A program made the position numbers and the translations under genes. From Saccostrea echinata (Eukaryota), in NCBI RefSeq assembly GCF_033153115.1, contig NW_026889778.1:23250001-23314000 (forward strand): DNA of 64,000 nucleotides. The letters are read 5' to 3'. Below, one piece after another: positions 17,662 through 64,000 of this stretch. Numbering within the stretch: the first letter of the stretch is position 1; each line of letters starts with the position of its first letter. The notes below the pieces were generated by a model, which saw only the letters and a list, made by a program, of their open reading frames with translations, was not told the origin of the DNA and searched no databases.

Positions 17662-20600
17662 TCAGCTCCCTGAATACTCCTTGGCCGTTTGATAAATCAG
17701 GTCTTTAATCTTTCGCCGGGTCTCTGTGACTGTTTTTGGGGTGACTATGTCATTCAATGGTATACTATATCCCTCACAAAGCTCTTTACACAAATGTTCA
17801 GCTGTAGCTATGACAAACACTCCACAGTCGTATGCTGAATAGATGCAAGAAATACCATTTTTTATTCATTGTCAACATAGATACTGTAAAACGAAATGTA
17901 CTTTTTTTATGCCGGGTCATAATTCCATGGAATAATAATTTCTGTTCAATCTGTGGTTAAAAAATTACACTGATTTCTTATCACTACTATATGTCTTATA
18001 TAATTATATGCATACATGTAACTAAGCTGTGACAAATTTCTGCTGGAAATTTGTGACTGGGTACATAGCGTATATTAATCCCACACTGAAAAAATGAAAG
18101 TTCGTCTACAGTATTTAAAATAAATAATAAAAATAATTTAAAAAGCTAGTAAATAAATAAATAAAAATCTGAAAATCCTTCAAAAATCCTGCATTTTCAA
18201 ATTTTTACATAAAAAAAGTCAAAACCAATCTGAGGAACAGGAATTGACTCTTCTTTAAAATACAAGGTTATGGTAGAAATGTCACTGTGTGGAGAGTTAA
18301 TAAAATACTTCCTTTATCATGTTTATCTTGAAAAACTTGATTTCTCCGATAAAACTAAACATGTATTGAATTAACGTATATACGGGTATCTTCAGCAGGT
18401 TTCATGTACATGTGAATCACTTAAAATAAATACTGTATACTCAGTTACTTGTTTTCTATCTTTGAAATTGATCTACTTCTGCATTGATGGATTCATGAAA
18501 TACGTATTTGTGATCTTGGTAATGCTAAATATACTTTGTACACTCACAGTTATTTTGCTGGGGTCCATCCATTTCCAGGAATTTCATGCGACCCATGGGA
18601 GCTAAGAAAGGGGAAAAAAGTTTCATTATAATTGTATTTATCAAATGCTCTTTGTGTGAATTACTTGTATAATAATTATTTTAAAAATATAAGTATCTGA
18701 AAATTAGCTCTATAACATGTTTTCCTCTATACAAGAGATTTAGAATCTTTATAAATTAATCAGCATACCCTCTAATTATTGAAATAAAAGCTGCCATCTT
18801 TAATTTCATTGGATTCTATATACATACATTGTATTTGCTTTTCTTCTTTTTTATTTTCCCTTTATCAAGCTAGGCATATTTTGAGCTTTGTAAGTCAATG
18901 AAGAAATAGAGCATACCTAGGACATATGGTTGTAGTTTATAAGCCAATCTCTTGGCTTCCTCTTGGTTTGTGTGTTTACTGGAATCATAATGTCTGAACT
19001 CCTGTCGACTTCTTATGTACACCAGTAGACTCCTGAAAAGGATATCACTGATAACAGGCACATATAGATCGAGCTGCCAACATCTTAAATTGAAAAATAA
19101 GAAGGAGATGGGCAGGGGCTGCCTAGACCCCTGGCCACTAGAGATTTTTTTCCACTTTGTTTAGATTGATTAAAACATGAAAATGATTAAGATTGCAAAT
19201 CTGCATGCCTACTATAAACAGACATTATAGTCGAGCAAGTGCTGTAAGGACTTTGACTTTTTCTTATTATATAATAAAAGCTGAAGACAAATAGGTATAA
19301 AAATTCTGGTATTTCAAACTTCTGACTGAGAAAAACAGAAATCTGATGAATAAATAGAGAAATCGTATAGTGTATTTTAGACACTCAAATCACAGGCCAA
19401 ATTATCAATTTTGGCTGCTCTGCATGTAGATCTAGACAATATATTATTTTAAGTTTAACATATAAATTGAGGAATCTGATTGCCAAACTTTTCACTCATG
19501 TGGGAGTTGTTTTGTGATAATGAAAAAAATGAAATTTAGTATATTACTTATTATGTTACTTATGCATTATTGTGTGAAAAGTTTAAAAGGATAAGTGATT
19601 CACACACCAGTGAGATCCACCAGTCTGTTCACACTGTGAATTGTCATTGACTGGAAGGAAGACATACTGCTTTGAGGGGAGATTCAAAGGCTCCAGGAAC
19701 TCTCCTAACTGGTCACCTTAAAGTAAAACTCACAGTAAAAGCACAAATTTAAGGTACAGGTACAAATTATCTTGATAGCTCTTTATCATATGCTTATAAA
19801 ATGTTCAATTGATAAAAAAAACATTTTTAAAATTACAGAAAATTATTATTTAGATTTTAATTTTTTTTTTTTTTTTTTTTTTTTTGCCTTTTTACTGCCA
19901 CCCATTACAAAATGTAAAAACCTTTGTCACACCTGTCTGAGGTAAAGTTAAAACACCCATTTTATATATTTTTTTTCTTTATGGCCGAGAAGCATTCAAT
20001 GCATGTTTTAAATCAATCCTGATAAGACTTGATTTATAATACATGTACAACATAGCTTTCATCTAGCTTAGCAGCAAATTCTGCACTAGTTGACCCCTTC
20101 CCACTTGTCACAAATGAAGGACAAAGTTTCCAGAGCAATTATCTGATGTAGACAAACTGCAGCACAGTGATACCATGTTATTTGTAGGCCACTGTATTTA
20201 GATATACATTTTGTATCTTTGTATATCTCACAATATAAAGGAAGAGGCTGTAATCCCCCCCCCCCCCCCTCCTCCTCCCCCCAATAAAAAGTAAAATTAA
20301 AAAAAATTAATTTATATGATTGCATGTTTATATACCCATGCTAATTGGTATCAAAATTATGTGCACAAGCTACTACAAGATACCCCAAATTTGCAAAATT
20401 AAGCCAAATAAGCCCCCCCCCCCCCCACCTCACCACGTAAAATATAAAAAGAAAAGAAAAACGTAGAAAAAATTAACTTCACAGTTTACATCATCTACAT
20501 AATGCTTAAGCTTCTTGACAATATCTAAATTTATCAAAATGAACCTATGTTCATGATGTTAATTAATACAATGTTTATACATTATATTTGTAATAACTTT

Positions 20601-23539: not shown

Positions 23540-24115
23540 AGAAAACGAATAGTAATCAAGCTCAAAAGTCTATTGAAACAATACAATTTGGGAGCAGAGA
23601 AAACACGAACCTCTAAAAACACCAGAGATGCATGGGATTAGATGCCATGGAGGAGTAAGCATCTCCTGTCGACAGGTAATACCGCTGTATGCTCCTCGAC
23701 GTCGTGATCGGGATTTCAAGTGGAAAAATCCGTAGACAATTCAGTGTGTAAAAAATGGGCTAACAATGGCATTAGTATGAAAAAGCTCAGTCAGCGTTCG
23801 ACTTCATGGTAGAATGTATTTGCTGACAACGTCATTGTATCGACAGAACTTGCGAAATGATGACTTAATTTAAACGAGACTGTTGATATTCTTGTTTCAT
23901 CATCTTGCTTGTCAATAGCTTGCTTCGTTTTAGAAACTGTTCGCTATTGCGTATCGAATCAAATGGGAGACATAAACCCCACATGCAGGTGATAAGGTTA
24001 TATTGCAACATAAGTAAGGGAAGTTGACGAAAGAAAAGTTGAAGTCATCACGTTTATCATAAAGTTTTGTTGTAAGGTTGCCATTAACGTCTTTTTCTAT
24101 AGTAAAATATATCTT
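23540..24115 (-). mobile_element. Penelope-like retroelement, 5'-truncated fragment
   Basis: RT C-terminal peptide LTTKLYDKRDDFNFSFVNFPYL...YVSHLIRYA plus the 3' module GGAGGAGTAAGCATC shared with four other copies. Confidence 0.85.
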
Positions 24116-24680
24116 AGGAAGTAATTTCAGTCGGAGGGTGCCCAACTAAACCTGAAAAAAAAAGATTTGAGGGGATATACAACCCAGAATTAGCTGTTAC
24201 TGGTTTTTCTAGCGTAATGTATTGTCTGTGTAACTGAATATATAATGAATGGCAAAAATGATAGGGATACGGCCATCAATGACCCACCCATGTAGCTATG
24301 CGCCTGTATCTGAAGCAATTTTTTAAAAAAAGAAAATTTTAGACTTATAATAGCTTATATATAGTTGTCATATGTACATCGATGATCTTTAAATTGTAAT
24401 GACACCACAGAAAGTAATATTTCTTGTTTTATTTTAGTTATAATCGTTGCTCAGTTTTCTTATAATACATTATTATATGTATTTTTTTTAATTATCATTA
24501 TTTTATGAGAGAAAAAAGAAAGAAAGACATTTTTTTCATCTTTTTTTATTTATATCATTTTTAACCACAGACTTATATACAAACATTGAAAGTATACGTG
24601 TCATATGATATAGATTAAATTATTATTGTTTGTACGTCTGGGGAATATCTGATATACAATAAATACATGTATCTGCATCT

Positions 24681-25579
24681 TTACATTTTTAACGTTTCTA
24701 TCCCCACTTGGATCCTGGAAAGAACCAGACCGACTGCGTCAAAAATCGGGGCACACAGACACATGGTAGAAGTCCCCACGAACATCTGACAGCACCCCAT
24801 CACAATACTACACCCGCGAAACATTGGAGTGGCGATCCATATCATAAAGAAGGTGAGGACGGCGAACGCCCAGCCAAAGAAGGGGGCGATCAGGCAGGAC
24901 AGCAGAGTGGTAAGGAGTTTGTACATACAGCTCTTACTGCAGTTAAAACAGGTGTAGGTGCAGTTTTCCCAGCAACAGTCATAGCTGTGTGCACCACTGG
25001 GTTCTGCTATCACTTCATCAAATTCTACCTGAAATGCAACAAATGTGAAACATTGTTTATGTCATTATTATGGACATACGGCGAAAATGAACCAAATATT
25101 AAAATAAAAAAAATCAAATTCTACCTGAAATACAACAAATGTGGAAATTTGTATATGTCATTATTATGAAAACATGGAGAAAAATAACCAAATATTAACA
25201 ATGATTAAAATAATAAAAAAAAATCTATATAGATTTTTTTTGCATAGGCGGATCCCGAGGGAGGGGGTCCTCCTAATTTTAGTTGTCTTGAGTTTATGTA
25301 GTAACCTGATAATCTCTCTATCTCTCTCTTTCTCTCTCTCTGAATCACAGACCTATAGATATATATCATTAGATGCGGGGAAGAGTAATGTAACGTTATT
25401 TTTATTCAAATACTGTACTTCCTTAGCTGGTGTTCCTTTAATTGAAAAAAGTAGAATTATTGTGTAAATCTAATTTACGTGTATGTATGTTATAGATTGA
25501 TAAAATCAAGACAATTCAGATCAATCAATACCTTCACATGTGAATTTAATTCATTTGGATCCCTGTCAGCTAAATCCAT
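24681..25579 (-). CDS. Caveolin-family protein, short and Cys-rich, 2 coding exons, 131 aa
   Basis: Exon 25579-25532 (MDLADRDPNELNSHVK) spliced to 25028-24681 (VEFDEVIAEPSGAHSYD...). Matches the caveolin RDP and FEDVIAEP signatures, the intramembrane segment and the IWxxxP motif. Confidence 0.93.
25017..25200. repeat. 96-bp tandem duplication spanning the caveolin 3' splice site
   Basis: ATCAAATTCTACCTGAAAT.CAACAAATGTG...TATGTCATTATTATG...AACCAAATATTAA at 25017 and 25113. Confidence 0.9.
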
Positions 25580-25893: not shown

Positions 25894-28800
25894 ATGTCAA
25901 AGATATATCTGAAAGTTCCACAGATTTCAAAATCTTTGCTGACAAGGACTTTTAAACAGTGTTTGAGGAAGAGATTCCAAGCATGTTGCAGTACCTCTCC
26001 AACGAACGAAACCCCCGAAAATACTCAAAGTTTCACAATATCAAACGCCAATCCAGGATTTTTAGAAGGGAAATTCATGGCTACTGACAAGTTTGGCAAA
26101 CTCTATATTGATGTACCGTTTGACATTCACATTGAGTCACTGAATCCAGACAAGTATCCAGAAATGAACAAAATGTTTGTAAAATTATTTTATGATCTAC
26201 AACCTGATGAAAAGGTGGATTCTTCTGTATTAGTGGCTCTGAGGCAGTGCTATACATTTAATGTGAACTTTAAAGATAAGAAAGAATTTACGGCAAAAGG
26301 GCACTTTAATTCTAAGGTGGAATACCCTGTCAAATGTGTTGTTCAATTACCCATGAAATTTGGTTGGTAGTTACTAGTCGTCTATATTTTACATATTAAT
26401 TGTGAATTTTACACAGACTTGTAAAGCCATTTTTTTGACTTTTTAAGTTTAAAACATCAAACAAAGTCAATTTTGAAATTATTAAATTTGAAATAAATTA
26501 GGAAATTAACCAATATTACAAGCATGTATACATGTGTATGTTTCTTAGGCATGAAAAAAGATGTCAGTATTTTTCTTTTTCATCATTTAGCACTGAACAG
26601 CACAGTTTTATATTTAAATTATATTGACATAGATCTTGATGTAACAGCTAGAGGATGTAGAACTCATATTGAAAAGATGGAGAGTGAGAAGATCACAGTC
26701 AAATCAAAGTCCGAGAGAGCAGCATCAACACAGTCAATCTGTACTCTAAAGAATATTAAGGTACCGTATATACTCGCCTATAAGACAGATTTTGGGGAGT
26801 AAGATTTTGGCCCCAAACACTATGTCCGACTTATAGGCGAGTCCTAGAAACATATTTTTTTTTCTCCACAGCAAATGGTACATGTAGTGTTTTTCTAAGA
26901 ACTCTGATGATTATCGTATGAAATTGATATGTAGAGAATGAAAGATTAAATATCAGTCTAATTTCCCAAAATATTTGTTGAATACATTTAAGTATTGATA
27001 TGAAACTGATTTGTTGAGAATAATAAAGAAAAAAATATTGGTGTCATTTCCCAACATATTATTTGAAACACAGGTAAAAAACATAAGATTATTGATCTGA
27101 AATTGTCAACTGATTCTATCAAAAGTTGTAGCAACTTATAAGAGGGTCAATGGCAAATCCCTCAAAAATGACCTAAAAATGTGCACAATCACTGACAATA
27201 TAAAATTTAAAACTAAACGCCAGTAAATGGAATGAAAGCATACTCCTGTAACTGTTTTTTTTTTATATAGCTACCTATATTTTCGAACTAAAATTAGTCA
27301 TTGTTAAAATGATCAGAAAAAACCCCAAACATGACCTTTTGCCACAGAATCATGATTTGTGGTACATATCTATGAACTATAAATTAATTTAAATTATATG
27401 ATGTATATACATGTAAGATCATAAAGATGAACATTTAATGTTTTAGTGTGGTACTGTGGAGGTGGAGGGGACAGATTGTGATGTCACAAGTGAGAAACTT
27501 CTACAGGGGAATTCCAAGATCACCATTAAAGGACAAGGGGTAGGTCAACAAACAAACAGCACAGCACTTTGTATAACATCCCTTTCAGGTTATTTATTGA
27601 TAATGATTACACAGTAACCATGGTAACTGAACACAACAGGGTGATCTTATGTATATTTCTAATGACATACTTTTGAAGCATTTTTTTCAGTTAAATGTTT
27701 CAAATGTTTAAATCGGTGTAAAATTTGAAGTTCATGGGAGCCATTTTTGTGGCAATTGGTACATGTGATAGAACTTTAATATACAGTGAAACTTGTTTAA
27801 TCTGGGTGTTGTGTATTCCAAAATCTTGCCTAATACGACGTCAGCTTCAAGTCCCTTCTAGTTAATTCAGTTGATTGAAATGTTGTCTAATCCGGCATGT
27901 TGTCTAAACTGGCCAATTTCTTTAGAACCAGTGGTGTCCAGATTAGACAAGTTTTACTGTATTACTCAAAAACTGAATACCATTTGAATTTTTTACTGCA
28001 GAACATTTCTGCAGAGAGACTACAGGGATTGACTATTCAGTGTCAAACAGACAATGGAAGCATTTCTGCAACCTCGGTGTATGGGGAGAACAATAGTTTC
28101 CATAGCAACACTGGAAATATCAGCCTTAATAACTGCCATGGTAAAACTGAGGTCAAGGTTAATTCTGGGGATCTCAAAATTGGTAAATGTTTAAATTTAG
28201 TCATTTTGATACCTTTGATTTTAGTTAATTCATACTAGTATATATACAGCAGGGATCTACATTAACTTTTTTTCCTACTTGTCCATTCGGACAAGTGACC
28301 AAGACATTTACTTGTCCGAACTTCAACTTCACTTGTCTGAAAATTTTTCAATAAAGATCTAATATTGTCAACTTAAAATAAAGTCCATTATATAGGTGCT
28401 TGATTGATTTGTGATCTTATTGATAAATAAAACAAACACATAATTAAAACAAAATTTTATCTAGACTTTCTGTCCTGACAACAACATAAATGTTCAAAGG
28501 CGAAACCGCTCAATTTGGAGAATCCAAACTTCATAAGATCCATGCCTTTTGCAATTTAAAATTGAAAGTAGTATGCAATAAATGAATTTTTCACTGGTAC
28601 CAGACAAGCAGACAAGCATTTATGTTGAGCCCTCTACAGTACATAATGTTAAAAGCTATATCTTTATTTAAATCAACTGAGTCAAAGGCTAAAGTGAGCT
28701 TTTCTGTTTGAAGTTTGTCTGTCGTCCATCTGTCATTTCACTTTTTAAACTTCTTTGCAAGAACCACTGGACTAATTTCAACTAAACTCAGCACAAAGCA

Positions 28801-31800
28801 TCTTTGGGTAAAAGGGATTCAGGGATATTCAAATGAAGGACCACATATTGAAAAGGGAGATAATCAAGAAAATGCAAAATAGAGGGTAGATGTCTTTCAA
28901 ATTCTTCTCAAGAACCACTGGACCAAAAAATATGAAATGCAAGTGAAAGCTTCCTGACATATAGTGTATATTCGATTTTGTTTAAATCATGGCCTCTGGG
29001 TGTTGAGTTGGGCCACATTTTTACATAGAAATATATAGGGAAAAATATAAAAGTCTTCAAGCACAGAAAGCCATGATTTAGTGATATTACTATGCAAGCA
29101 TTCTGAGATAATGTGGATACAAGTTTGTCCAAATGATGGCCCCAGTGGGTTGGATGGGGCCACAATAAAGGATCAAAGTTTTACATGGAACTGTGTAGAA
29201 AAAATCTTTAAATATCTTCTTTTCAAGAACATGGACATGATTAATGATGATAACATGTAAGCATCTTCAGAAAGTGTAGATTCAAGTTTGTTAAAATCAT
29301 GGTCTCAGGGGGTGTGGTAGAGCCACAATAAAGAATCAGAGTTTTAAATAGGAGGAATAGAAAATAATCTTTAAAAATCTTCTCAATAACAACAAGGCCA
29401 TGTTAAAACACCTAGTTTGGCATTTTTTGGAAGTTTTCAAGGAATACGTAGAGTTTATAGAGGATTGTAACATGATCTGTACATAATTAATTTTATTAAA
29501 TAAATAGACTTTCAAAAACCAGGGCTAAAAATCTTACTTATAATAAGATTTTTTTTTATAGATGGATTAGAGGGGGACTTTAATGGAGCTGTCAATGAAG
29601 GAAACACAGATCTGTACATAACAAAGCCAGAAAACATAGCCATTACAACAAATACAGGTTTGTCTGAACTGAAGGTCATTTCTTTGGTAAATGTTGAACA
29701 CCATCTCTTATCCTTGTATGAGAAATATCTGCAAGTTTGGAACCTTCTTTTACTCATGAATATTTATCTCCACAAATCATATATACAATTGTTTGTTTAT
29801 GTAGAATGTTTTCTCAGTCTAAAAAATTAATAGTAACTGTTGCAGATTGAAAAAAAAAAGTTGTCATTATTTTACCCTAGCTCTTTCATTGAGAAATGGA
29901 ATTGTCTGAAAAAAGCATGATTGTTACTATCCACTGGCAGGGAGCATTGATAGATACATGATTCGAATAGGTGATTTATCACTGATTATTCAATTATTTA
30001 AATGTATCTGTATCTTTTGTTGCAAATTTTATGAATATGTTATATCACCTAATCAAAGAAGTGACAGCAACAGTTCATATATTAGATGATATCTAATTAT
30101 TCAAATAGATGATACATGTATCACTTATTTGAATTCTTGATATCAACTCATTTTAGCAGTAGGACCTTCTTTTTTTTTAAACAAAAATCAATTTAAAGTG
30201 TGATGTTCTGTAGTTGAATAAGTATTGATACCTTTAATACAGATAAATTATACAACTTACTGAAATATTGCAGTTGGTGATATCAGCTATTCAATTAAGA
30301 AAAATGAATTGCTCAAATTTGAAGAGTTCAATTGTTATGTATTGCAAATGTCCCAGGGATCATAATTTGAATAAGAGCATATAGCACATCAAGAGAATGC
30401 TTATAACTGAGTTTAACATTCTGCAGCCCCAAAGTTCTTGATATGAGGAGATTTTGAAATTTACATTTCTTTGTAAAGCTTTGGATCCCTTTGTTACTTT
30501 TTTAATTAAAAAATCTTATCCTTTTCTAGTCGTAAAAGACTATAAAATTTTATTTGTACTACACATTGTATGTATCTAAGAATTCTTTGATTTTTATTTG
30601 GCTTTCAATTCTGATGGAAATAAGATCATTTTATATGGATCTATAAACTAACAGAATCGTTAGTGAAAAAAGCAAACAAACAATATCCTCGGATGATCAG
30701 AAGTAGAATAATTTTTATTTCCCTATTTTGCAATAAAAATTACCTATTATTTTTCAATTATATTAACATAATTCTAAAGGTAGATAACCCCTCCATCTTT
30801 ATTGACCTGTTAGTAATATCATTAGCTATGCAAGTCATTAACCTCAAATTTTGTTTACTACTTTAAAAAATGCAATATGTAAAATTGTCCAGACTTATAC
30901 TTACGTAAGTGTGAGTAATAGAGTAAGTTTCTAAATCTGTATTAAAGTGTGGGAACCGTTTGCGTAATTTTACCTAGAAATATTAGAGAGAAGGATATAT
31001 CTTAATACAGAAAATCCATCATCCATAGTGATAGGTAACATGTTCAGGATTAACTTTGTCATGTGTTTTGTCAGCAGTTTTTGTTGATGGTGACTGATGG
31101 GGGTCCAGATCTGTGCAAGGGAGGACCAACACCTTTACTATAATTTGTCTTGTCTCCATCATTATGTGATCTAGTATTGAATATTTTTGTCCTTTACTCA
31201 CAGTTTAAAAATGTGGGTCAGCTCAAAGAATGACATTTCATTCTGCAATGGAGTACATGTACATGGTCAGATGTTTATGTTTTTCTTCAAAGTTATCTTT
31301 AAGAGCTAAGAGCACTAGAAAATTTCTGGGACCATGCAAAATGCAGCAAACAGATCTCAGCTAAAATAAATTGTCAGTTGAGCTATTTGGGTATTTAAAT
31401 GTCAGTTTGTTGAAGAAATTATGGAACTTAGATAGGAATTGGATCTTATGCTGCACAGGTCATGTTTGTAGATCACAAAAAAAAAAAAAAAAAAAAAAAA
31501 AATGTGGTCAATATAGAAAAATGTTAATGTTTCTTTAGTGTTATATTTTGAATTAGGAAAAATGAAATACAAGTCAAAATCAAATCTGAAAATATTTTTA
31601 TAATTTTTTTTATTTATAATTTCGCTTATTCTTCTTTCCATGCCTAACAGTGACTTTTTGAATTCACCGACCCGCAAACATAGATTGCCTTCAACACAGA
31701 AGAGATTCTTTTCAAAATCGTACATGTATACCTGTTATTTTTTCACTGCTTTTTTGAATTTGTGATTTTATCAAGAGCACAATCATAGCAAACATTTACT

Positions 31801-34039
31801 CCACGTTAGTCATTTCCCCATATATAAACCGTCACGGTAGCTCAGTCGGTAGAGCGCTCGCTCCGTGATCGGATGGTCGTGTGTTCGAATCACGGCTGCG
31901 ACTGACCTAAGTCAATAAAAAGTAGGTAGCAACTGTTCCTTCGCCAAGCGCTCTCGGCACTTTGAAGTGAAAGTTGCGGGTCCTTCGGATGAGACCTTAA
32001 AAACAGAGGCCCCGTGTCACGGTAGGCGTTGGCACGATAAAGAACCGTCACTGCTCAATGGCCCTGGGTGCCGAGTAAAGGTCTAAATTTCAAGCCTTTC
32101 ACCAGTATATGGTGAAGTCTTTATATGAGTGAAAAATTCTCGAACGGGACGTAAAACAACATACAATCAATCAATCAATCCCTATATACAGTAATAAACG
32201 CTTTAGATGACACGAAGATGGATACTTGCTTTGTCTACATTAAAACGGACACCCTTTCCAAATTAAATTTAAAACAGCTGAAATGGGTTTAACCTTTCCC
32301 ATCTCAAAATCTTCTTTTCTTATTATTATAATGATATAATGAAACATGTAAAAGTGAACAGAATTTAATAAGGAAAAAAGCACAATTTAACATATAAGCC
32401 TATACAAAAGTTTTCACCTGTTTCTTAAATTCAATTCTCTGGTTCATCAACTTATTTGCAATCATAATCATTCTCCATCAATAATGAAAAAGGTGAAGAA
32501 AACGAACAGTGAGCGATCTCATAAACCTTGTAAACAATGCAAATCTATAAACAAGGCATAAACACGGACTCTCTAGAAACACCAGAGGTGGGATCAGGTG
32601 CCGAGGAGGAGTAAGCATCCCCTGTCTACAGGCCACACCCGCTGTGAGACTCCTGTATTGATCAGGTAAACGGAGTAATTCATAGTCAAAACCAGTGTAA
32701 AAACAATTGCCCAACAAATAGTTGAAACATGTCAGTAAAACTATTACCCAGTGATAGGTTGTATTTGCAAAACAACGTCATTATATCGACCATAATTTGC
32801 AAAATGCTTATTTAAACACGATCGTTGAAACCCATGTAAGGCCATCTTATTAGCATTTGTCAGTAGCCTGCCTCCGTTTAAAATTTGATCGTACTCGGAA
32901 CATGCTCTTGCATACCGAATAGATTGGGAGACATAAACACCACGTGCAGTTGGTTTTGGAATATTACCGTAGGGGAAGCTGATGATGAAAAAAGCTGAAG
33001 TCATCACGATTGATATGTATTTTAATTGTTAGTTGGCCATTAACTTCTATAGTCAGTAAAACTTCCAAATATGAAACAGATCAGGCATAATTTGTGGTTT
33101 CTTTTAATTTTTGTTCTGTGGAATATATCGAGTTGACATTTGAATGAAAAACGTCGTCTATATATCTAAATGTCCAATTGAAGGCCACAGCGAAAATTTT
33201 GGGAAAAAAGTTTTACATATGAAAATTACGTTAAATTCCCAAAGGATTATTTATTATCTTTTGATAGTAGTATTTTAAATTTTAGTGATATTACTCGTAA
33301 AATTTTTTAGACCTAGAGCATTCAGTTCACTCTTTTATGTACAATTTTAACAAAGAAACATGTTTTGGAGAATCTTTAATCAGCATATCATCTCATTTTT
33401 CGACCATTGAAAATCAAGATGATATCAAATTTCTTATAATAAACAATAAACATCACTCTATAAAATTCACCCCCACACAATAACTACCAATTTTGATACG
33501 CAGGTCATGTAAATAGACAAAGGGCATATAGAAAAAGGGGAACAAGAGAAGGCAGTTTATGACATCGTTGAATCTATTTTATTGCAGGAAACATAACACT
33601 GAAAGTTCAAGGAGAGGTCAATGCTTCTTTTGACCTCAGTGGATCAAAGGTCACTTACGACAGTTCTCTCTTATTTAATGACGTGAAATTTTCCGAAGAT
33701 GACCCCAGATCATTTAAAGGTAGGTTTAGACCTTTTTTAATTCTAGCCTAGTAGAATGATTTGAATTTGCAACCATTAGTTTTATTCGCAGTAAAATCGA
33801 AAGGAAAAAAGCCCAAAGTGTACAATATATGTACTTTTTTCTCGCACATTTGAAGTACATTAACAAACAATGGTATTGTACAACATTTTGTTTTAAATGA
33901 ATTTTAAAATTATTTTTTTTTTTTTGCAGGTAATCTTGGTGAAGGGGGAGGTAATATCTCTGCTACTTCCTCATCTGGAAGCATTGATGTGGAGGCATTT
34001 GATTGGTTAAAATCACTTAACCTGAAAAGAGGAGAATAA
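25894..34039 (+). CDS. FAM185A: Protein FAM185A-like (DUF4097/adhesin-like beta-strand repeats), 7 exons, 402 aa
   Basis: Exons 25894-26362, 26633-26760, 27447-27539, 28002-28182, 29562-29657, 33588-33719, 33930-34039; GT-AG and phase-compatible (1209 nt). Motifs PMKFDLDV, ERLQGLTIQCQTDNG, repeated G-[SND]-I strands and C-terminal DWLKSLNL match FAM185A as I recall it. AATAAA at 34087. Confidence 0.88.
26762..27185 (+). mobile_element. One-ended Tc1/mariner (pogo-like) MITE starting inside the FAM185A exon 2 donor
   Basis: TA-CCGTATATACTCGCCTATAAG terminus with internal inverted copy CTTATAGGCGAGT; right terminus not found. Confidence 0.6.
27782..27961. mobile_element. TA-flanked Tc1/mariner (Tigger-like) MITE
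   Basis: TA-CAGTGAAACTTGTTTAATCTGG ... CCAGATTAGACAAGTTTTACTG-TA. Confidence 0.8.
28250..28633. mobile_element. Degenerate hAT-like MITE
   Basis: CAGGGATCTACATTAAC ... TTTATGTTGAGCCCT ends with CTTGTC/GACAAG subterminal repeats; target duplication unclear. Confidence 0.5.
28667..29400 (+). mobile_element. Helentron-type element, same family as 1835-2723, 3'-truncated
   Basis: CTGAGTCAAAGGCTAAAGTGAGCTTTTCT head, AGAACCACTGG motifs and tandem core repeats. Confidence 0.75.
31829..32180 (+). mobile_element. tRNA-derived SINE (Deu/Nin-domain-like centre), copy 1
   Basis: A box GGTAGCTCAGTCGGTAGAGC, B box GTTCGAATC, central CTTCGGATGAGACC..AAAC.GAGGCCCC, (AATC)n tail. Confidence 0.9.
32485..33195 (-). 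mobile_element. Penelope-like retroelement fragment
   Basis: FRYIDD (near 33153-33170), GVYVSQSIRYARACS, frameshifts, and the shared 3' module. Confidence 0.85.
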
Positions 34040-56250: not shown

Positions 56251-59200
56251 ATGGAATTCTTTCCATCAATTCTGCTTTTGAATGTGCTTGGATATATGTC
56301 TTGTTTTCTCCAATCAAAGAGGATCCAACTAGATGGAAATGGTTACACTGGTGTGACTGTAGCAATATCTAGTAAACTGGACCCTACTGAAATTCATATA
56401 CAGAGACTAAAGGTGAGCTAAAAAAATCTTTTGATGCAAAGGCTATTGCATGTATTTCGTGCTCATTTCTGCATTTTCTATGTAGAGATAAAAAATGATA
56501 TTTGTACGGTTTGCATTGTATTAATACACCAATATCAATTGCGTATTATATGCATTTAGAAACTTTTACTTAAAAAATCGCCTCCTCGTGGAATTATTAT
56601 TTTTCATAATCACAACCTTGCTGATTGCATAAAGAGAGTACATATGAATTTCGTAAGATTAATTTTCTTCGTTAAAATCGAAATATTTCTTTGGACGACT
56701 TACAATGGGAAAGGACGTCTCGATGTCTTTATTGTTAAAGACCAAAGTTAAATAGACTTTATAGTTCAATTAAATAATTTGTTTTCAGAATTGAAGTTTA
56801 TTGTCCATTTTAATCCTTTCCTCTAAATAATCCTCTGTGTAAAATATTTTGTAAGGAAATATAATGGTAGAATGTCAAAAATATTATGATTATTTTGATT
56901 TCATCTGTGAGACTTAAGCAAATAAAAGAAAATGTCTAAACAACTATTTTGAACAAATATCTCAAAGTCAAATAAAAGAGATTTGCATAATATAGCCTGA
57001 AAAAATTGCGCAATAAATCAAAATTTGAAAGAAGATAAAGTGATTGATTTATCACTTCAAGAATGAATTATTTCAAACGACAAAATGACAATTGCAAATT
57101 CCCATCTGTTAAAGAGAAATGGCTTTAGCAAAGTGCATCGCGTTGTTATACATACTTTTATCATTCATTACTTTTAAAGTTTCAAAGATACTACAAATTA
57201 GTTTTATAGCAAAAAATTAGGAATAAAATGTTTTTCTAACAATATTTTAGCTGTAAAAATTAGGATTCATTTTTAAAAGGTTCCTAAATGTGGAATTAAT
57301 CTGCCCAATTTGTTGAAAGTAACATCATGCATGCATCATTAATAATAGCGTTGAGATTAAATAACATCTACATGTATTATATTAACAATCATGGCTTGGC
57401 CATGAAAATTAATGAATTTACATTTGTTTCAAAGAATTCTAAAGGAAATTACAGTGACACATTTTCAGAAATACAATTTATACATTGTAACAACTACATG
57501 TAAATGCCGACTTCATGTTGATTTTAAAAATTAATTTACTCCGTCTTGTCCTCGTTACTAGTAAATGCATTGTTTGTTTCCATTTTGTAGAATAAGAAAT
57601 TCTCACCTGTGCTTGTTTATACCTTTGACAAATGATTTCACACTTCACCTGTTCATGTCATACAATTTTATAGATCTAATCTCTTAAGCCTATCATATCA
57701 CAGTTGTATCTGTCGGAAAATAAGAGTGTCATACTTAATCATTTCCTCGGGCAAAGTGCAAAATTAACATTCTAAACCTAATTGCACTAATTTGTTCCTG
57801 AGAGTACAATATACATCAGATGTAATTGTCAAACATCGTGCTACTGCTCTTTCGGTGTAGAGAGTGTCTTATGTTCGAGTAGATTGACGTTTAATATGGT
57901 GCTTAATTTTGCACAAGTGAACCTTATTCTACTCATGATAACTTTGCTAATGTATATAAGAACTGAGTTACATGTACATGTAAGTGAAAATTACATACTG
58001 GTTATCAGCGTAAGTGTTTAATCTAAAAAGAAATCTAGGACCATCATTTAGCAAATGACTGTAAAATCTGCAGTAAATAGAATAAGATAATAAATGTCTG
58101 TCGAGTATAGTATATATTTGTTCTTGTGCGTGTCTCTTTGACATTTCTTCTCCATTCAAAGAAATAAATTAAGTTATTTAGATAATCTGTACATTTTCAT
58201 AATATCATTTTGCAGAACTTACTCACGGCTGCCTCTGCCCAGTTGTACAAGACAACAAAATACCACCTATATTTTAAAGATGTCACCATAGTTATACCGA
58301 AGTCATGGCCGAATAATTTCAGCAAAGAATTTGTAAGTGGACCACAACTTGATACGGCCCACATTATTGTGGACAAACCCAATCCACTGGTGGACAACAA
58401 GCCATACGTTTCTGGAATGACCGGGTGTGGGCATCCTGGAAAATACATATATTTAGAACCTATCACAGTACAAGTTCATCCGGCAGAGGGACTTGCAGGT
58501 GCATGATATATCTTTTTTATTAAGGAAAGCAATAAAAATAAATGTTGATGAACATGTTCTGTAACGGTTTTACTATGCACTTGTGCTATGATAAAATTCA
58601 TACGGTTGTAAATATGAAACACCTATTACTGTCACGGACTGAGAAATGCCACATACAAATCATACGCTTAAAAATCTTAAATACATTTTCAGTGTGCTGA
58701 TTTTCTCCTTTTTTTTTCATAGATAAGATACTGGTTCATCACTGGGGCCATTTCAGGTGGGGGTTATTTGACGAACATGGCGATAAGGAAGCACCCATCA
58801 TGGGAACAAATACAAACCCTTGGTTTTACTCTACTGAGGGGACATTCAAACCCAATATGTAAGTTTAAATTTTACTACAATAAAAAATCTTTAACAGCAA
58901 AGCCTTATATGTTTGACATGTTTGTTTCTTTTTAAACAGGCAGAATACTCACCTTACATCATGCTTTTTATGAGCTTTTTGTTCCGTGATTTTAAAGATA
59001 TAATTATTATTTTTTAATTAAACTACGACAAAAAAGATTTACACTACAAATATGGAAGCAGGCCATGACCTTATTTTTTCTGTATGTTGTATGAATAATG
59101 TCGAAATAAAATTAATGATCTGTAATATCTTACATCAGAATCGGTGTAATTCTTCAGATGTGCTAAAAATATCAAGGGTCAAAACCACCTAAAATACTGC

Positions 59201-62200
59201 CAGAGCTTCAGACAGTGTCTTCTGGACGATAATGGTTTGCCAGAAAAGGATTGTAAATTCTGTGTCGACGAACGGGATAATACTGCAAAAGGCTCTATCA
59301 TGGGGAAACCGGAGATATCTAGTGTTGGTATATATAAGAAATCTTTGTTTAATGATAGAAATATTCAATCAAACTTGACAATGTAAGAGCATCTTATTAT
59401 AACGCTCCTGTGATGAGTACTAAATAGTCGTTCATTGGTGATTTACTTAAAATATAAAAATTAAAACTGGATAAATTCATCCAATATCTTATAAACATGA
59501 TCATATATGAACCCTATATCACTATTTCTAAGCATAGTATCTAAACATGCATAATTAACACTCTAAGTGTATATATATATCTTTTTTTTTATTTAAAGCA
59601 TTAAGCATTTGTTGTATTTTATTGTAACATATCAAATGGTGTACCTTTTTCATTTGTATTCAAGGTGGTTGAATTTTGTGACGATGAAAATAGTGATGTT
59701 CCACACAACAGAGAGGCGGACACTCCTCATAACAGATTCTGTCAAGGAAGAAGTGCCTGGGAAATAATGAGACTTCATTCTGACTTCAAAGGTCAGTTTA
59801 TTTATTGATTTAACATTACATATATTTTTAGGGAAATCCAGACCCAAAAATTTTTAACTATGCAAGCATTTTCATCAACATATGTTTTGCATATTAGCCT
59901 TAATTTTTCTTTAGCAATTTTGTTTGTATGTAGATACAAAACCAGGGCCTCCATCACAGAACACAGTGCCAACATTCAGAGTTGTTCAACAGCGGACGGG
60001 TCAGAAAGTTGTTTTAGTATTGGACAAGTCCGGAAGTATGAACAGTTACGATGTAAGTTCCGGAACCAATTTGTTCAATACCAATAACGGTCTACATCTA
60101 TAAGACAATAAATGATAGAACAAGTGTTTTATTTTTATTAAAGTTTTTTGCATAATTGTAAAAAGTTGACTGGCTTTATGCTTCATGATATTCATACTTC
60201 CTCTAGGACAGTAAAACAACAAACCCTTTGCGAAAGGTATTACAATACCTATGAATATTACTTCCTCTCTGTCTCTATTCCAATATCTCAGTTATATTCC
60301 ATAATAAAACTCACAAATCTCAATTTCTGTCTTCACTTTTAATATTTGATCAAGCATCATTGTACTACTATTCCTAACTCTTTTAAATCATTCTTACCAA
60401 TAATTGCAGTGTATAATTAGAAGTAATGTTGAATGTTTGAAACGCTTAATTAGTATATTAACCACGATTTTTGCATATCGAAGGAATTTAAAATACTTTA
60501 CAAATACTTGTCTACTTACATATATTTAAGCTTAGAAGATATATGTTTACTAGACTAACTTTCCCTTGTTAACAAAATCGCATGCATAGCACTTATCTGT
60601 ATTATATATCAATAATCGCTCAGTCTTACTTTACCGGTACCGTTTTTAATTTTACATTTTTTTCTGCAAAAGAAAATTGTAGTGAGATAATGAGAGCTCC
60701 TAATAAATCATTTAAAAATTATGATTGAAAACAATATCAAGTTTCATCAAAATATTTTTTATCTTTTTAAAGCAGAGAATAAACAAATTGAAGGATATAT
60801 CATCCAATTATATCAGAAACTGGTCACCAAATGCTACATCCATTGCCGTGGTAACATTTAACGAAACTGCCAGTGTGGTGGCTCCATTAACTACTGTGAC
60901 GTCAGAACAAGAGAGACAAAGCTTAGTGACGTTGGTGAAGAACATCAAAGCTCTTGGTGCAACTTCTATTGGAGCTGGTCTACAAAAAGCATTAAAGGTA
61001 TATTGAGTAGATTTAGTATCAATTCGAGGCTAGGGAAATGACTATAAATTATTTCTATGAAGAACAAAGTGTAACAAGATTGGAAGAATTGATTTAAGTA
61101 ATAACAAGATGAAGATGAAAAATCATGACATTGTTTATTGTTTTGCAGTTATTAAAAGAAGATAGTGACAACATTACGGGAAGCGAAATAATTTTGGTAT
61201 CTGATGGCGCCAATACAGTTCTTCCTGGACCGGATGAAGTTAGAGGGGAAATTCTAGTCGAAGGTGTAATCATCAGATCTGTGGCTATTGGGAGGGAGGC
61301 GGATGCAAAAATTGATAAACTAGCAAAGGACAGTGGCGGATTTAGCTTCTTTTACTCCGGAAATGAGCGGTCTACAGCTCTTGCAGATATTTTTCTTGGC
61401 ATCGCTGCTTCTTCTTCTGATGAAGAAGGGAAGATGTATCAAGTAAGTGGGCCGTAATAATAATGCATAAGCAAAGTATGACAGGTGAAAATTGGAAAGT
61501 AATTGGCATTAAAACATATTGGCTAGAAGTCTGAGGATTTTTAATAAGTTTCTCTGCTTGAAGAATTCTTTTGCCCATCAGATCTGTTCAAATAAAGAGC
61601 CATTCTTCCTTTCATAGGATATAAAGTAGGAAAAGTTTAAATTTAATAATAAATACACGGAAGACTTATTCAAAATTATTTTCTAAAGAATCACTTGGCA
61701 AAAAGAGTCAAAACTTTATTATATTAAGGTTTCTTCATAGATTGTAAGTTCAAGTTTGTTAAAATCTGGAGCTTTGACGGGGTCACCATAGGTGTCACCC
61801 CTTGGCATAAAAATATCAGAGGAAAAATCTCTCACATGCCAGTAAGTGGAAATGACAAGAATATCATCCCAATATAGTGGTGTTTTTCAAATTTGTTCAA
61901 ATCACTGCATTATCATAAACGGAAAAATATCTTTATTTTTTTTCCAAAAAGTTCTTCTAAAGACTAACTGGACTACAATAAGTCAAATGCAAGCATCCCC
62001 TCATAGTGTGGATTCAAGTTCGTTCAAATCATAGCCGCTTAGAATAGGATGCTGCCTCAAATGGGGGTCAACGTTTTATATAGGAATGTATATGAGGATG
62101 ATCTTTTTTTCTTTTGTACATGGTCCAACAATGACCATGCATATTATGATGTAAACATCTCCAGGTAGTAAAGATTCAATTTTAAACAGATCTAGGATCC

Positions 62201-64000
62201 CATGACTTGAATTGGGGAACAATAAGACATCATATATCACATAGTATATATTTGAAGAAAAAGTTGAAAATGTCTCCTTAAAACATTGTCACAATTTGTC
62301 ATACAATAATATGAAAGTATTCCAGTATAGTGCAGATTCCTGTTTGTTCAAATCATGATCCCTGGATCCAGTGCTTTTCATATTTTCTTAGTCTTCTGCA
62401 GTGATCAATAAAGTTTTCTTGAATCAAATGGTTTTCCTTAAATATTTTTTTTTCATGCAACAATAATTTGATATTTTGCCATTTATTCACCATTTAGCTA
62501 GAGAGCAAATCAGTGAATGTGACCAAAGAGCAGAATTTCACCACATCGATAACAATTGACTCTACCATTGGACGGGACACCACTATCCTGCTAATGGGGC
62601 CAGGGATTGATTTCACTGTTGCAACATTATCAGGTCCTGGGAATAGTTTCCTTACTTCTGGTGCCTGTACAGATTCGTGTAGCTTAAAGATTGAAGGAAT
62701 AGCAGAGGTAACCTATAACAAAATATTTTGTCTGTTATATAGTACACTGCTACAAACAGCTTGATAATTCTAATATAAATCATATGTTTTTATTTGTTTT
62801 AGATAGGTGATTACGTAATTGAAATTTCGTCATCATTTGACGTCATTCTGACACTGACGGCACATTCCTATCCTAGGAATCCTTCTGAAGATGTTTTCAC
62901 TGCCACTGCTTGGACATCGACAGACTCATTCGACTTTTCACCATCTTCCCCGATTGTACTTTATGCTTTAGTTCAGAAAGGAACATACCCTGTCTTCGAT
63001 GCTGATGTCAAAATATTTGCAGAGGATGAAAATGGTCACGTGATCAATGTAGACCTAGCTGATGATGGTCTAGGTGAGAGAAGACATCTTGTCGTCATTA
63101 CTTTGTTCTACAGAACTTATATTTATAGGGCTTTCTTATCGGTTTCGCGACGGAAGTCCTGAAAATAATGTCTGTGTTTATTTTGTAGGTATGGATTTAA
63201 TTAAGGGGGATGGTCAATATACAGGATTGATATTGCCTTCTCGAATCAAATCGAGTGGACGACACAGTCTCAAACTTGTAGTGACTGGCAAAGATGGTGA
63301 AACAAAAATTCTGCTACCTGAACTGAAAAGGCGAAAAAGGCAAATACAGGATGAAATTGGTATATAAACCATTCTATGGAATTTTATTGAACGTATCTTT
63401 ATAATTTTAGCCTATTACAAATGTTTATCATGCACTTATAAAATATTCAGACATAATATATTTCTACTCAATACAGATGTGTCCTTCCGCGACGCGACAT
63501 ATAACCCTTCAATTGAAAAAAAAAATACCAACTTGTCCTTCTTTATTAAATTACAGATTGGTTCCTCTTGGGAAATTAGAGCAGGTTTAAAACTTTAATG
63601 ATTTTTCTCCCTTTTTCAGCAACCTCTAATCTCAAAACAGAGAACGTGGGTGGATTTAAGAGGGTTGCAGCTGGAGGGACATTTACTGTTCAGAATTACA
63701 AACCTGTAACAGAGGATAGGATGCCACCAGCCAGGATTACGACCCTCAGACTTATAAGCGCCGAGAGTAATTCTTTCAATGTAAGCTGGAATGCCGTGGG
63801 TGATGATTTCACCATTGGAAATGGTAAGAAATATTTATTTTAGGTAAAAAATGTTAATAATTAGCGATAAGTTACATACTTCTCAATTATTTAACATACG
63901 GATGGGTTTTATCATTGTACAGTAATTCTTAAAGAATAATTATGATTATTGTGTTTGAACGTGTTTTTATTTCTTTTCCAGCATCATCCTACAAGATTTT
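56251..64000 (+). CDS. CLCA: Calcium-activated chloride channel regulator (CLCA family), 3'-incomplete
   Basis: Exons 56251-56412, 58216-58498, 58723-58858, 59158-59323, 59665-59791, 59934-60052, 60776(or 60773)-60997, 61149-61442, 62498-62707, 62803-63073, 63189-63359, 63620-63823, 63982-end; all GT-AG and phase-compatible. Signal peptide, GNGYTGVTVAI, GCGHPGKYIYL, HHWGHFRWGLFDE, VVEFC..HN..C.GRSAW, VWA with DKSGS, DDGLGMD..GDGQY, FnIII-like SWNAVGDD. Confidence 0.95.
61545..62370 (+). mobile_element. Decayed Helentron-type core repeats in CLCA intron 8
   Basis: Repeated GATTCAAGTT.GTTCAAATCA and GCAAGCATCC motifs as in 1835-2723. Confidence 0.6.

Follow-up and report, generated by a model that had tools for sequence, protein, structure and literature searches.

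An oyster CLCA with a substituted protease motif carries a furin-type site in its self-cleavage loop

In a 64,000-nucleotide stretch of Saccostrea echinata DNA (the window) we characterized a gene of the CLCA family in which the catalytic Glu of the HExxH motif is replaced, and which encodes the tetrapeptide RRKR in the loop where active CLCAs cleave themselves. The best explanation, to which we assign a probability of roughly 0.65, is that this full-length Glu-less protein is a dead metalloprotease that is cut by a furin-type convertase. The substituted motif was the subject of the original prediction. The presence of RRKR at the self-cleavage position is a new point, as the furin-type site in exon 11 had been missed.

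Gene model and domain structure

The first 13 exons of the gene, on the forward strand, occupy 56251..64000 and hold 795 of its 982 codons, with the rest located past the window end. The features are as follows.

56251..56412 (+), exon 1, coding part: signal-peptide-like N-terminus (by eye) and start of CLCA_N; joined to exon 2 in runs X1, X2 and X3
58216..58498 (+), exon 2, CLCA_N: Pfam CLCA E 8e-17; joined to exon 3 in X1 and X4
58723..58858 (+), exon 3, substituted active-site motif: Pfam CLCA E 4e-6; contig of run X4
58737..58778 (+), motif H154-H155-W-G-H158...G162-x-x-D165-E166-H167: predicted helix 148-161, pLDDT ~96 in the ortholog P0001
59158..59323 (+), exon 4, Cys-rich part of CLCA_N: gene model, Pfam, contigs
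59665..59791 (+), exon 5, end of CLCA_N: gene model, Pfam
59934..60052 (+), exon 6, start of vWA with MIDAS at 60023-60037: gene model
60773..61442 (+), exons 7 (60773-60997) and 8 (61149-61442), vWA: Pfam VWA, P0001 model
62498..63073 (+), exons 9 (62498-62707) and 10 (62803-63073), beta-sheet-rich: gene model, contigs, P0001 model
63189..63359 (+), exon 11, cleavage linker: gene model, contigs
63329..63340 (+), R712-R-K-R715, furin/proprotein-convertase consensus R-X-K/R-R: at the CLCA self-cleavage position
63620..64000 (+), exon 12 (63620-63823) and start of exon 13 (63982-): FN3-like C-terminal subunit

The reading frame had been described as intact over 13 exons, and this was upheld: GT-AG borders were found at 12/12 introns and the 795 codons were free of stops up to the window end. 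The complete S. echinata RefSeq model XP_061187627.1 (P0208, 982 aa) is identical to the in-window protein at 795/795 residues and the gene is thus not broken downstream, which contradicts the downstream pseudogene that had been considered at the outset. Contigs from four public runs showed 10 of the 12 intron joins as modelled; whether each run is RNA or DNA is a guess, and joints were also seen in two runs marked 'DNA?'. A direct join across intron 4 or intron 5 was present in no contig among the matches listed. In a contig of run X2, exon 3 is followed by exon 5 with 204 letters between them, which equals the model prediction (6+166+32). One contig of run X4, with a depth of 2.7, joins exons 2, 3 and 4 and has no other letters in exon 3. 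A selection check, also proposed in the original prediction, was done with a related contig of run X1, which gave a pN/pS of ~0.14 over exons 7-12 (based on 38 of the 53 differences, 26 synonymous and 12 non-synonymous).

Pfam CLCA_N (PF08434) matched residues 25-295 of P0208 with an E-value of 4e-58 (197 bits against a cut-off of 25.6), and exons 2, 3 and 5 each scored above the CLCA cut-off alone. By Pfam, exons 2-5 belong to CLCA_N and exons 7-8 to vWA, the VWA match covering residues 317-478. The MIDAS is intact (DKSGS at 322-326, D-x-S-x-S). In the AlphaFold model of the ortholog P0001 the vWA domain superimposed on that of human CLCA1 (6pyo) with a Z-score of 25.8 and an rmsd of 1.5 over 159 residues; residues 503-863 are predicted to be all-beta, and a helix is predicted at 887-915. 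The predicted transmembrane helix of the window protein lies beyond the window end. Pfam FN3 gave no match on P0208. The alignment to other CLCAs holds over the full length, and by its domains (CLCA_N, vWA with MIDAS, beta-rich region, FN3-like region and predicted transmembrane helix) the gene is a member of the CLCA family.

Intron 8 contains a high-copy repeat at 62327-62366, with a summed contig depth of 1800-7900 in all four runs and many loose ends. Elsewhere in the window a caveolin-family exon was found at 24684-25028 (-) (Pfam PF01146, E 6e-27), with a short duplicated stretch beside its end (25021-25160). A multi-exon gene at 25894-29827 (+), which we take to be FAM185A-like, has a DUF4097 match (E 2e-6) in the exon at 27891-28235. 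A weak Peptidase_C48 match at 17665-17865 (-), below the cut-off (E 0.03), presumably marks a SENP8-like C-terminal exon. Three ORF fragments at 46763-47146 (-), 23933-24145 (-) and 32747-33028 (-) are alike and by eye resemble decayed pieces of retroelement reverse transcriptase.

The active-site motif

Nucleotides 58737-58778 (+), CAT CAC TGG GGC CAT TTC AGG TGG GGG TTA TTT GAC GAA CAT, are translated as HHWGHFRWGLFDEH. The family consensus is given as HExxHxxxGxxDEY (PMC3650047). In the window protein the catalytic Glu is replaced by His155 (codon CAC, 58740-58742), and the HExxH of active proteases reads HHWGH. The putative zinc ligands H154, H158, D165 and E166 are present at the sequence level, as had been claimed.

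The CLCA_N domain modelled alone reached a pLDDT of 91. Its best fold match was ADAM17 (Z 9.3, rmsd 4.3, 158 aligned residues), which is metzincin-like, and the 33 top rows of a wide fold search were metallopeptidases or their relatives by title; the best Foldseek match had an E-value of 3e-3. A solved CLCA_N structure was found neither by sequence (5 matches, all to vWA) nor by fold. The predicted fold is that of a zincin (metzincin-like), with the prediction driven by the family alignment.

The letters of the window, the RefSeq model and most of the oyster relatives agree on HHWGH, and the contig of run X4, though of low depth, goes in the direction of the check with reads that had been advised. 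HHWGH is neither a chance finding nor a sequencing error. The original prediction had taken the two base changes between Glu and His as an argument against an error; the exclusion of an error stood, and the two changes need not have come together, as His is reachable stepwise via Gln, which is seen in Pinctada. Glu to Gln to His is a path of single-base steps.

Loss of the glutamate in oysters and their relatives

A survey of mollusc CLCA paralogues for HHxxH had also been recommended. A protein search with exon 3 found 8 proteins, 7 with HHWGH and 1 with HLWGH. The carriers by name are S. echinata (3 paralogs), S. cucullata (3), Ostrea edulis, Magallana gigas and M. angulata, and HHWGH was thus found in five oyster species of three genera. 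Among the named matches of an incomplete search, which make up the smaller part of the representatives, no oyster CLCA with HExxH was detected. A further protein search gave 9 proteins and no new bivalve.

A maximum-likelihood tree was built from 29 mollusc and related rows, with the motif and linker columns removed. The oyster clade (9 rows, 8 distinct) had a support of 100/100, and Glu was absent from all 8 distinct oyster proteins. H154, H158, D165 and E166 are kept in all 8 oyster rows compared at these positions. Its sister group consists of three Pinctada proteins (98/95 together) with HQWGR, HQWGH and an intact HEWAH, and the 12 oyster and Pinctada rows had a joint support of 100/99. 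Six scallop and mussel sequences outside this clade have kept HExxH. Where the window protein has His155, the oyster paralog P0006 has Leu and the Pinctada proteins P0034 and P0039 have Gln; in P0034 the second His and the Asp are missing as well. Two losses of Glu are favoured by the tree (98/95), and a single loss was not rejected in the AU test (p 0.243). From these sequences every oyster CLCA paralog found and named here is probably non-catalytic, despite its annotation. In Magallana, the HHWGH ortholog was also found joined, after the CLCA end, to a Notch-like EGF-repeat protein (P0178, 2344 aa; P0179, 2356 aa); these two are probably gene-prediction chimeras.

For a family-wide view 176 proteins were fetched and taken together with the window protein. 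A length filter of 450-1800 aa was passed by 164, and a further 18 were set aside because the motif was absent or the linker was odd or had no clear bounds, which left 146 CLCAs for scoring. The position of the HExxH Glu is occupied by E in 124 of them, H in 9, Q in 4, L in 3, N in 3, and I, A and Y in 1 each. HHxxH is found on three separate branches of the tree: oysters, Lingula and Branchiostoma. The Lingula protein P0092 (HHWGH) and the Branchiostoma proteins P0082/P0191 (HHWAH) represent separate Glu-to-His changes with no furin-type site, and are natural contrasts to the oysters.

It had been suggested that the extra His may be a fourth metal ligand, which would make the site a structural, non-catalytic metal centre. 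The recurrence of HHxxH on three branches is in line with this, as are the ligands kept in all oyster rows and the 90% identity of the motif region within the oyster clade, against 62-73% elsewhere. However, the idea is weak: close relatives have Leu or Gln instead of this His, one of them lacks the second His and the Asp, and Gln, Asn and Leu recur at this position across CLCAs. The motif region is also 98% conserved in an intact gastropod clade, so its conservation in oysters may be related to the fold. The fourth-ligand role is compatible with a dead, convertase-cut protein and is possible, though not needed; we consider it unlikely, and as the reason for the change it found no support.

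A furin-type site in the cleavage loop

R-X-K/R-R is the furin consensus (bioRxiv 10.1101/2023.03.12.532270). RRKR in exon 11, 4.6 kb downstream of HHWGH, is its only occurrence in the 795 in-window residues. In the P0001 model the predicted loop 709-725 around it forms a block with a pLDDT of 53, and no other part from residue 21 to residue 870 is modelled with less confidence, as would be expected of an exposed flexible linker. RRKR (712-715) is thereby placed in a predicted accessible loop of a protein predicted to enter the secretory pathway.

Published self-cleavage sites are GALY at 694-697 (PMC6085540) and QNR/ALY (PMC9007345), and they are located in the loop that follows the final strand of the beta-rich part. 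The window loop reads RRKR/QI and has neither the small-residue/Ala pattern nor the canonical self-cleavage site (G or R/A-L-type, near residue 700). Counted from the anchor strand, the last Arg of the R-X-K/R-R site is at +21 residues in 8/8 oyster rows, and that of the basic site is at +20 in both Glu-less Pinctada proteins. A small-residue/Ala site resembling the self-cleavage site was found in 65/114 HExxH proteins, at a median of +19 (10-90%: 17-21). R-X-K/R-R is carried by all 8 distinct oyster proteins and by both Glu-less Pinctada proteins, and the scallop, mussel and gastropod relatives with HExxH have no such site in the loop. The third Pinctada protein, P0044, combines the intact HEWAH with RTRR in the loop; its gene model is damaged (short vWA, unrelated C-terminus) and the site is at +24, which makes the homology of this site unsure.

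Alternatively, the pseudo-protease may stay uncut, or an active CLCA paralog may cut it in trans, RRKR being incidental. CLCA2 E165Q is cut in trans by the wild type at 1.5-6% (PMC10669480), uncleaved CLCA1 is still secreted (PMC6851300), and Arg is frequent at P1 of vertebrate sites, as in QNR/ALY (PMC9007345); 3/8 oyster rows have R/AA at the cleavage position. Yet the basic site is present throughout the oyster rows and both Glu-less Pinctada proteins, in a linker with a mean identity of only 62% among seven oyster sequences, and elsewhere in the ectodomain R-X-K/R-R occurs at a background of ~0.01 site per 40 residues. No paralog with HExxH turned up among the named oyster matches of the incomplete search. 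We regard this alternative as rather improbable.

Furin-type sites and broken motifs across the family

The preferred reading, a convertase cut in a dead protease, was followed up in the 146 scored CLCAs. A furin-type site was present in the loop of 18/32 proteins with a broken HExxH and of 5/114 with an intact one. After collapsing at 50% identity the counts were 8/20 and 5/92 (Fisher p 2e-4), and below 40% identity 6/16 and 3/59 (p 0.002). On a FastTree tree, the LR of a Pagel-type test was 13.8 (chi-square p 0.008), a value reached by 0/143 simulations under independence. The independent-pairs test was not significant (~2 pairs the same way, 0.1 opposite and 10 tied; median p 0.5). The signal came mostly from the oyster and shrimp clades, in which the idea had been formed: the Pagel test gave p 0.028 with the bivalves dropped, p 0.068 with the decapods dropped and p 0.30 with both dropped, and the Fisher test without the oyster and shrimp clades 3/15 against 4/113 (p 0.035). 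Looser motifs gave a weaker signal in the Pagel test (RxxR p 0.049; [KR]x[KR]R p 0.022).

Outside the bivalves, broken motifs together with furin-type sites were found in shrimps and a crab (MEWAR, YEWAK, LEWAK), the urchin Lytechinus (RNWGY), the bryozoan Watersipora (KEFAK) and the bowfin Amia (RLWAT). No furin-type site was found in 14 of the 32 broken CLCAs, among them the Lingula and Branchiostoma proteins. The vertebrate case, P0080 of Amia ocellicauda, has RVRR in the cleavage loop, and a second copy, P0194, shares both features. Judged from sequences, the link between furin-type site and broken motif appears strong within oysters and moderate across animals.

Discussion

The window CLCA lacks the catalytic Glu and the canonical self-cleavage site of an active protease and is, by inference, a real and conserved pseudo-protease, as the original prediction had proposed; no member of the oyster clade has the Glu, and the gene has stayed conserved. 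The Glu had been cited as needed for self-cleavage of human CLCA1, and this was confirmed, as E157Q blocks cleavage there (PMC6085540). The Glu is likewise required for cleavage in CLCA2 (E165Q, PMC10669480) and in chicken CLCA1 (PMC9007345). Mouse CLCA4a still undergoes partial cleavage when its Glu is changed to Gln (PMC9007345), so that loss of Glu need not abolish cleavage.

In the proposed mechanism, catalysis would have been lost with the change of Glu to His155, and a furin-type convertase would cut after Arg715, at the loop where active CLCAs self-cleave. This cut would free the ectodomain, predicted to consist of CLCA_N and vWA, from a stub that is predicted to be anchored in the membrane. 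The mature protein would probably be a non-catalytic adhesive or channel-regulating ectodomain in mucosal epithelium, e.g. of the gill, and may still bind zinc. One CLCA has been reported to mark a gill cell type in the Pacific oyster (bioRxiv 10.64898/2026.05.15.723513). The furin site may have come first, in the ancestor of oysters and pearl oysters, after which self-cleavage would have been redundant and Glu freed. The intact HEWAH and RTRR of P0044, inside the well-supported oyster and Pinctada clade, imply an ancestor with both Glu and basic site if the P0044 site is homologous, and the order of furin site first would fit whether Glu was lost once or twice.

More broadly, CLCAs may have repeatedly swapped self-cleavage for furin in one and the same loop, in oysters and pearl oysters, in decapods, in a sea urchin, in a bryozoan and in bowfin, with the furin site of oysters coming first and releasing Glu. 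Selection would then keep the cut near residue ~700 and not the protease activity, and the CLCAs of oysters would serve as natural controls that are 'cleaved but dead'. We put this forward tentatively, as somewhat less probable than its opposite.

Less plausible than any of the readings above is that the protein is still an active metallo-hydrolase with His155 as the general base, perhaps for another substrate such as mucin. His serves as base in some other metallopeptidase families, and here the metal ligands are kept and a metzincin-like fold is predicted. CLCA1 also cuts MUC2 (PMC6851300), and its mucus activity is independent of self-cleavage (PMC6085540). However, even the conservative E-to-Q change blocks cleavage nearly or fully in human CLCA1, CLCA2 and chicken CLCA1, in the reports cited above. 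His is also exchangeable for Leu within the oyster clade. The fold is no proof of activity, as ADAM22 scores Z 8.3 in the same list and is catalytically inactive. A sequencing error or decaying pseudogene, for which it could be said that a single low-depth contig from a run of guessed label covers the codon directly, is refuted by the conservation of HHWGH across species, the complete RefSeq model and the low pN/pS.

A broken HExxH in CLCA is already known, and what is new here is the matched furin site as a proposed mechanism. Lenart et al. 2013 describe about five independent, lineage-specific losses of the CLCA active site, and in their Fig. S3 Branchiostoma and Ixodes are shown with HHxxH (PMC3650047); an HHxxH CLCA is therefore not new in kind. 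The MExxR, YExxK, LExxK and RNxxY forms occur both in that figure and in our survey. The main text of that paper mentions neither furin, convertase or cleavage site nor mollusc or oyster, and its supplements contain no HHWGH and no Crassostrea. The paper covers the N-terminal domain only, which places the link to the cleavage loop outside it. Furin replacing CLCA self-cleavage was not found in titles and abstract starts among the matches listed, a coverage mostly outside subscription journals; in the available text of the top match for CLCA and furin, the furin passages concern VWF.

The purpose of CLCA self-cleavage has been stated as unknown (PMC6851300). In the E-to-Q mutant that is commonly used, catalysis and cleavage are lost at once, whereas a natural CLCA without catalysis but with a convertase site at that bond would allow the two to be told apart. 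This suggests a design for human CLCA1 or CLCA2, in which a furin site is placed in the E-to-Q mutant and channel or calcium-entry regulation is then followed. The oyster CLCA further offers a testable example of how a gain that is redundant may permit the loss of an enzyme activity.

BAI2/ADGRB2, which is autoproteolysis-resistant and furin-cleaved, was considered as a precedent and rejected because its furin site is far from its GPS. Non-catalytic ADAMs of the LQxxL and HQxxH types resemble the oyster CLCA in having a metzincin-like fold, a broken HExxH and a membrane-anchored multidomain structure, and they have been proposed to be decoys or accessory proteins (PMC3650047). The oyster CLCA differs from them in family and domain set, and in that the activity lost would be self-cleavage, with a substitute site at the same bond position.

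The closest known systems are the membrane-anchored vertebrate CLCAs (human CLCA2 and CLCA4, chicken CLCA1), the secreted CLCA1 and the Pfam family PF08434. The oyster protein shares with vertebrate CLCAs the order of CLCA_N, vWA with MIDAS, beta-rich region, FN3-like region and predicted transmembrane helix, as well as a processing site near residue 700 (PMC10669480, PMC9007345), which is a predicted one in the oyster. Unlike them, it has HHxxH for HExxH and RRKR/QI for GALY or QNR/ALY, and its cut would be made by a convertase and not by the protein itself.
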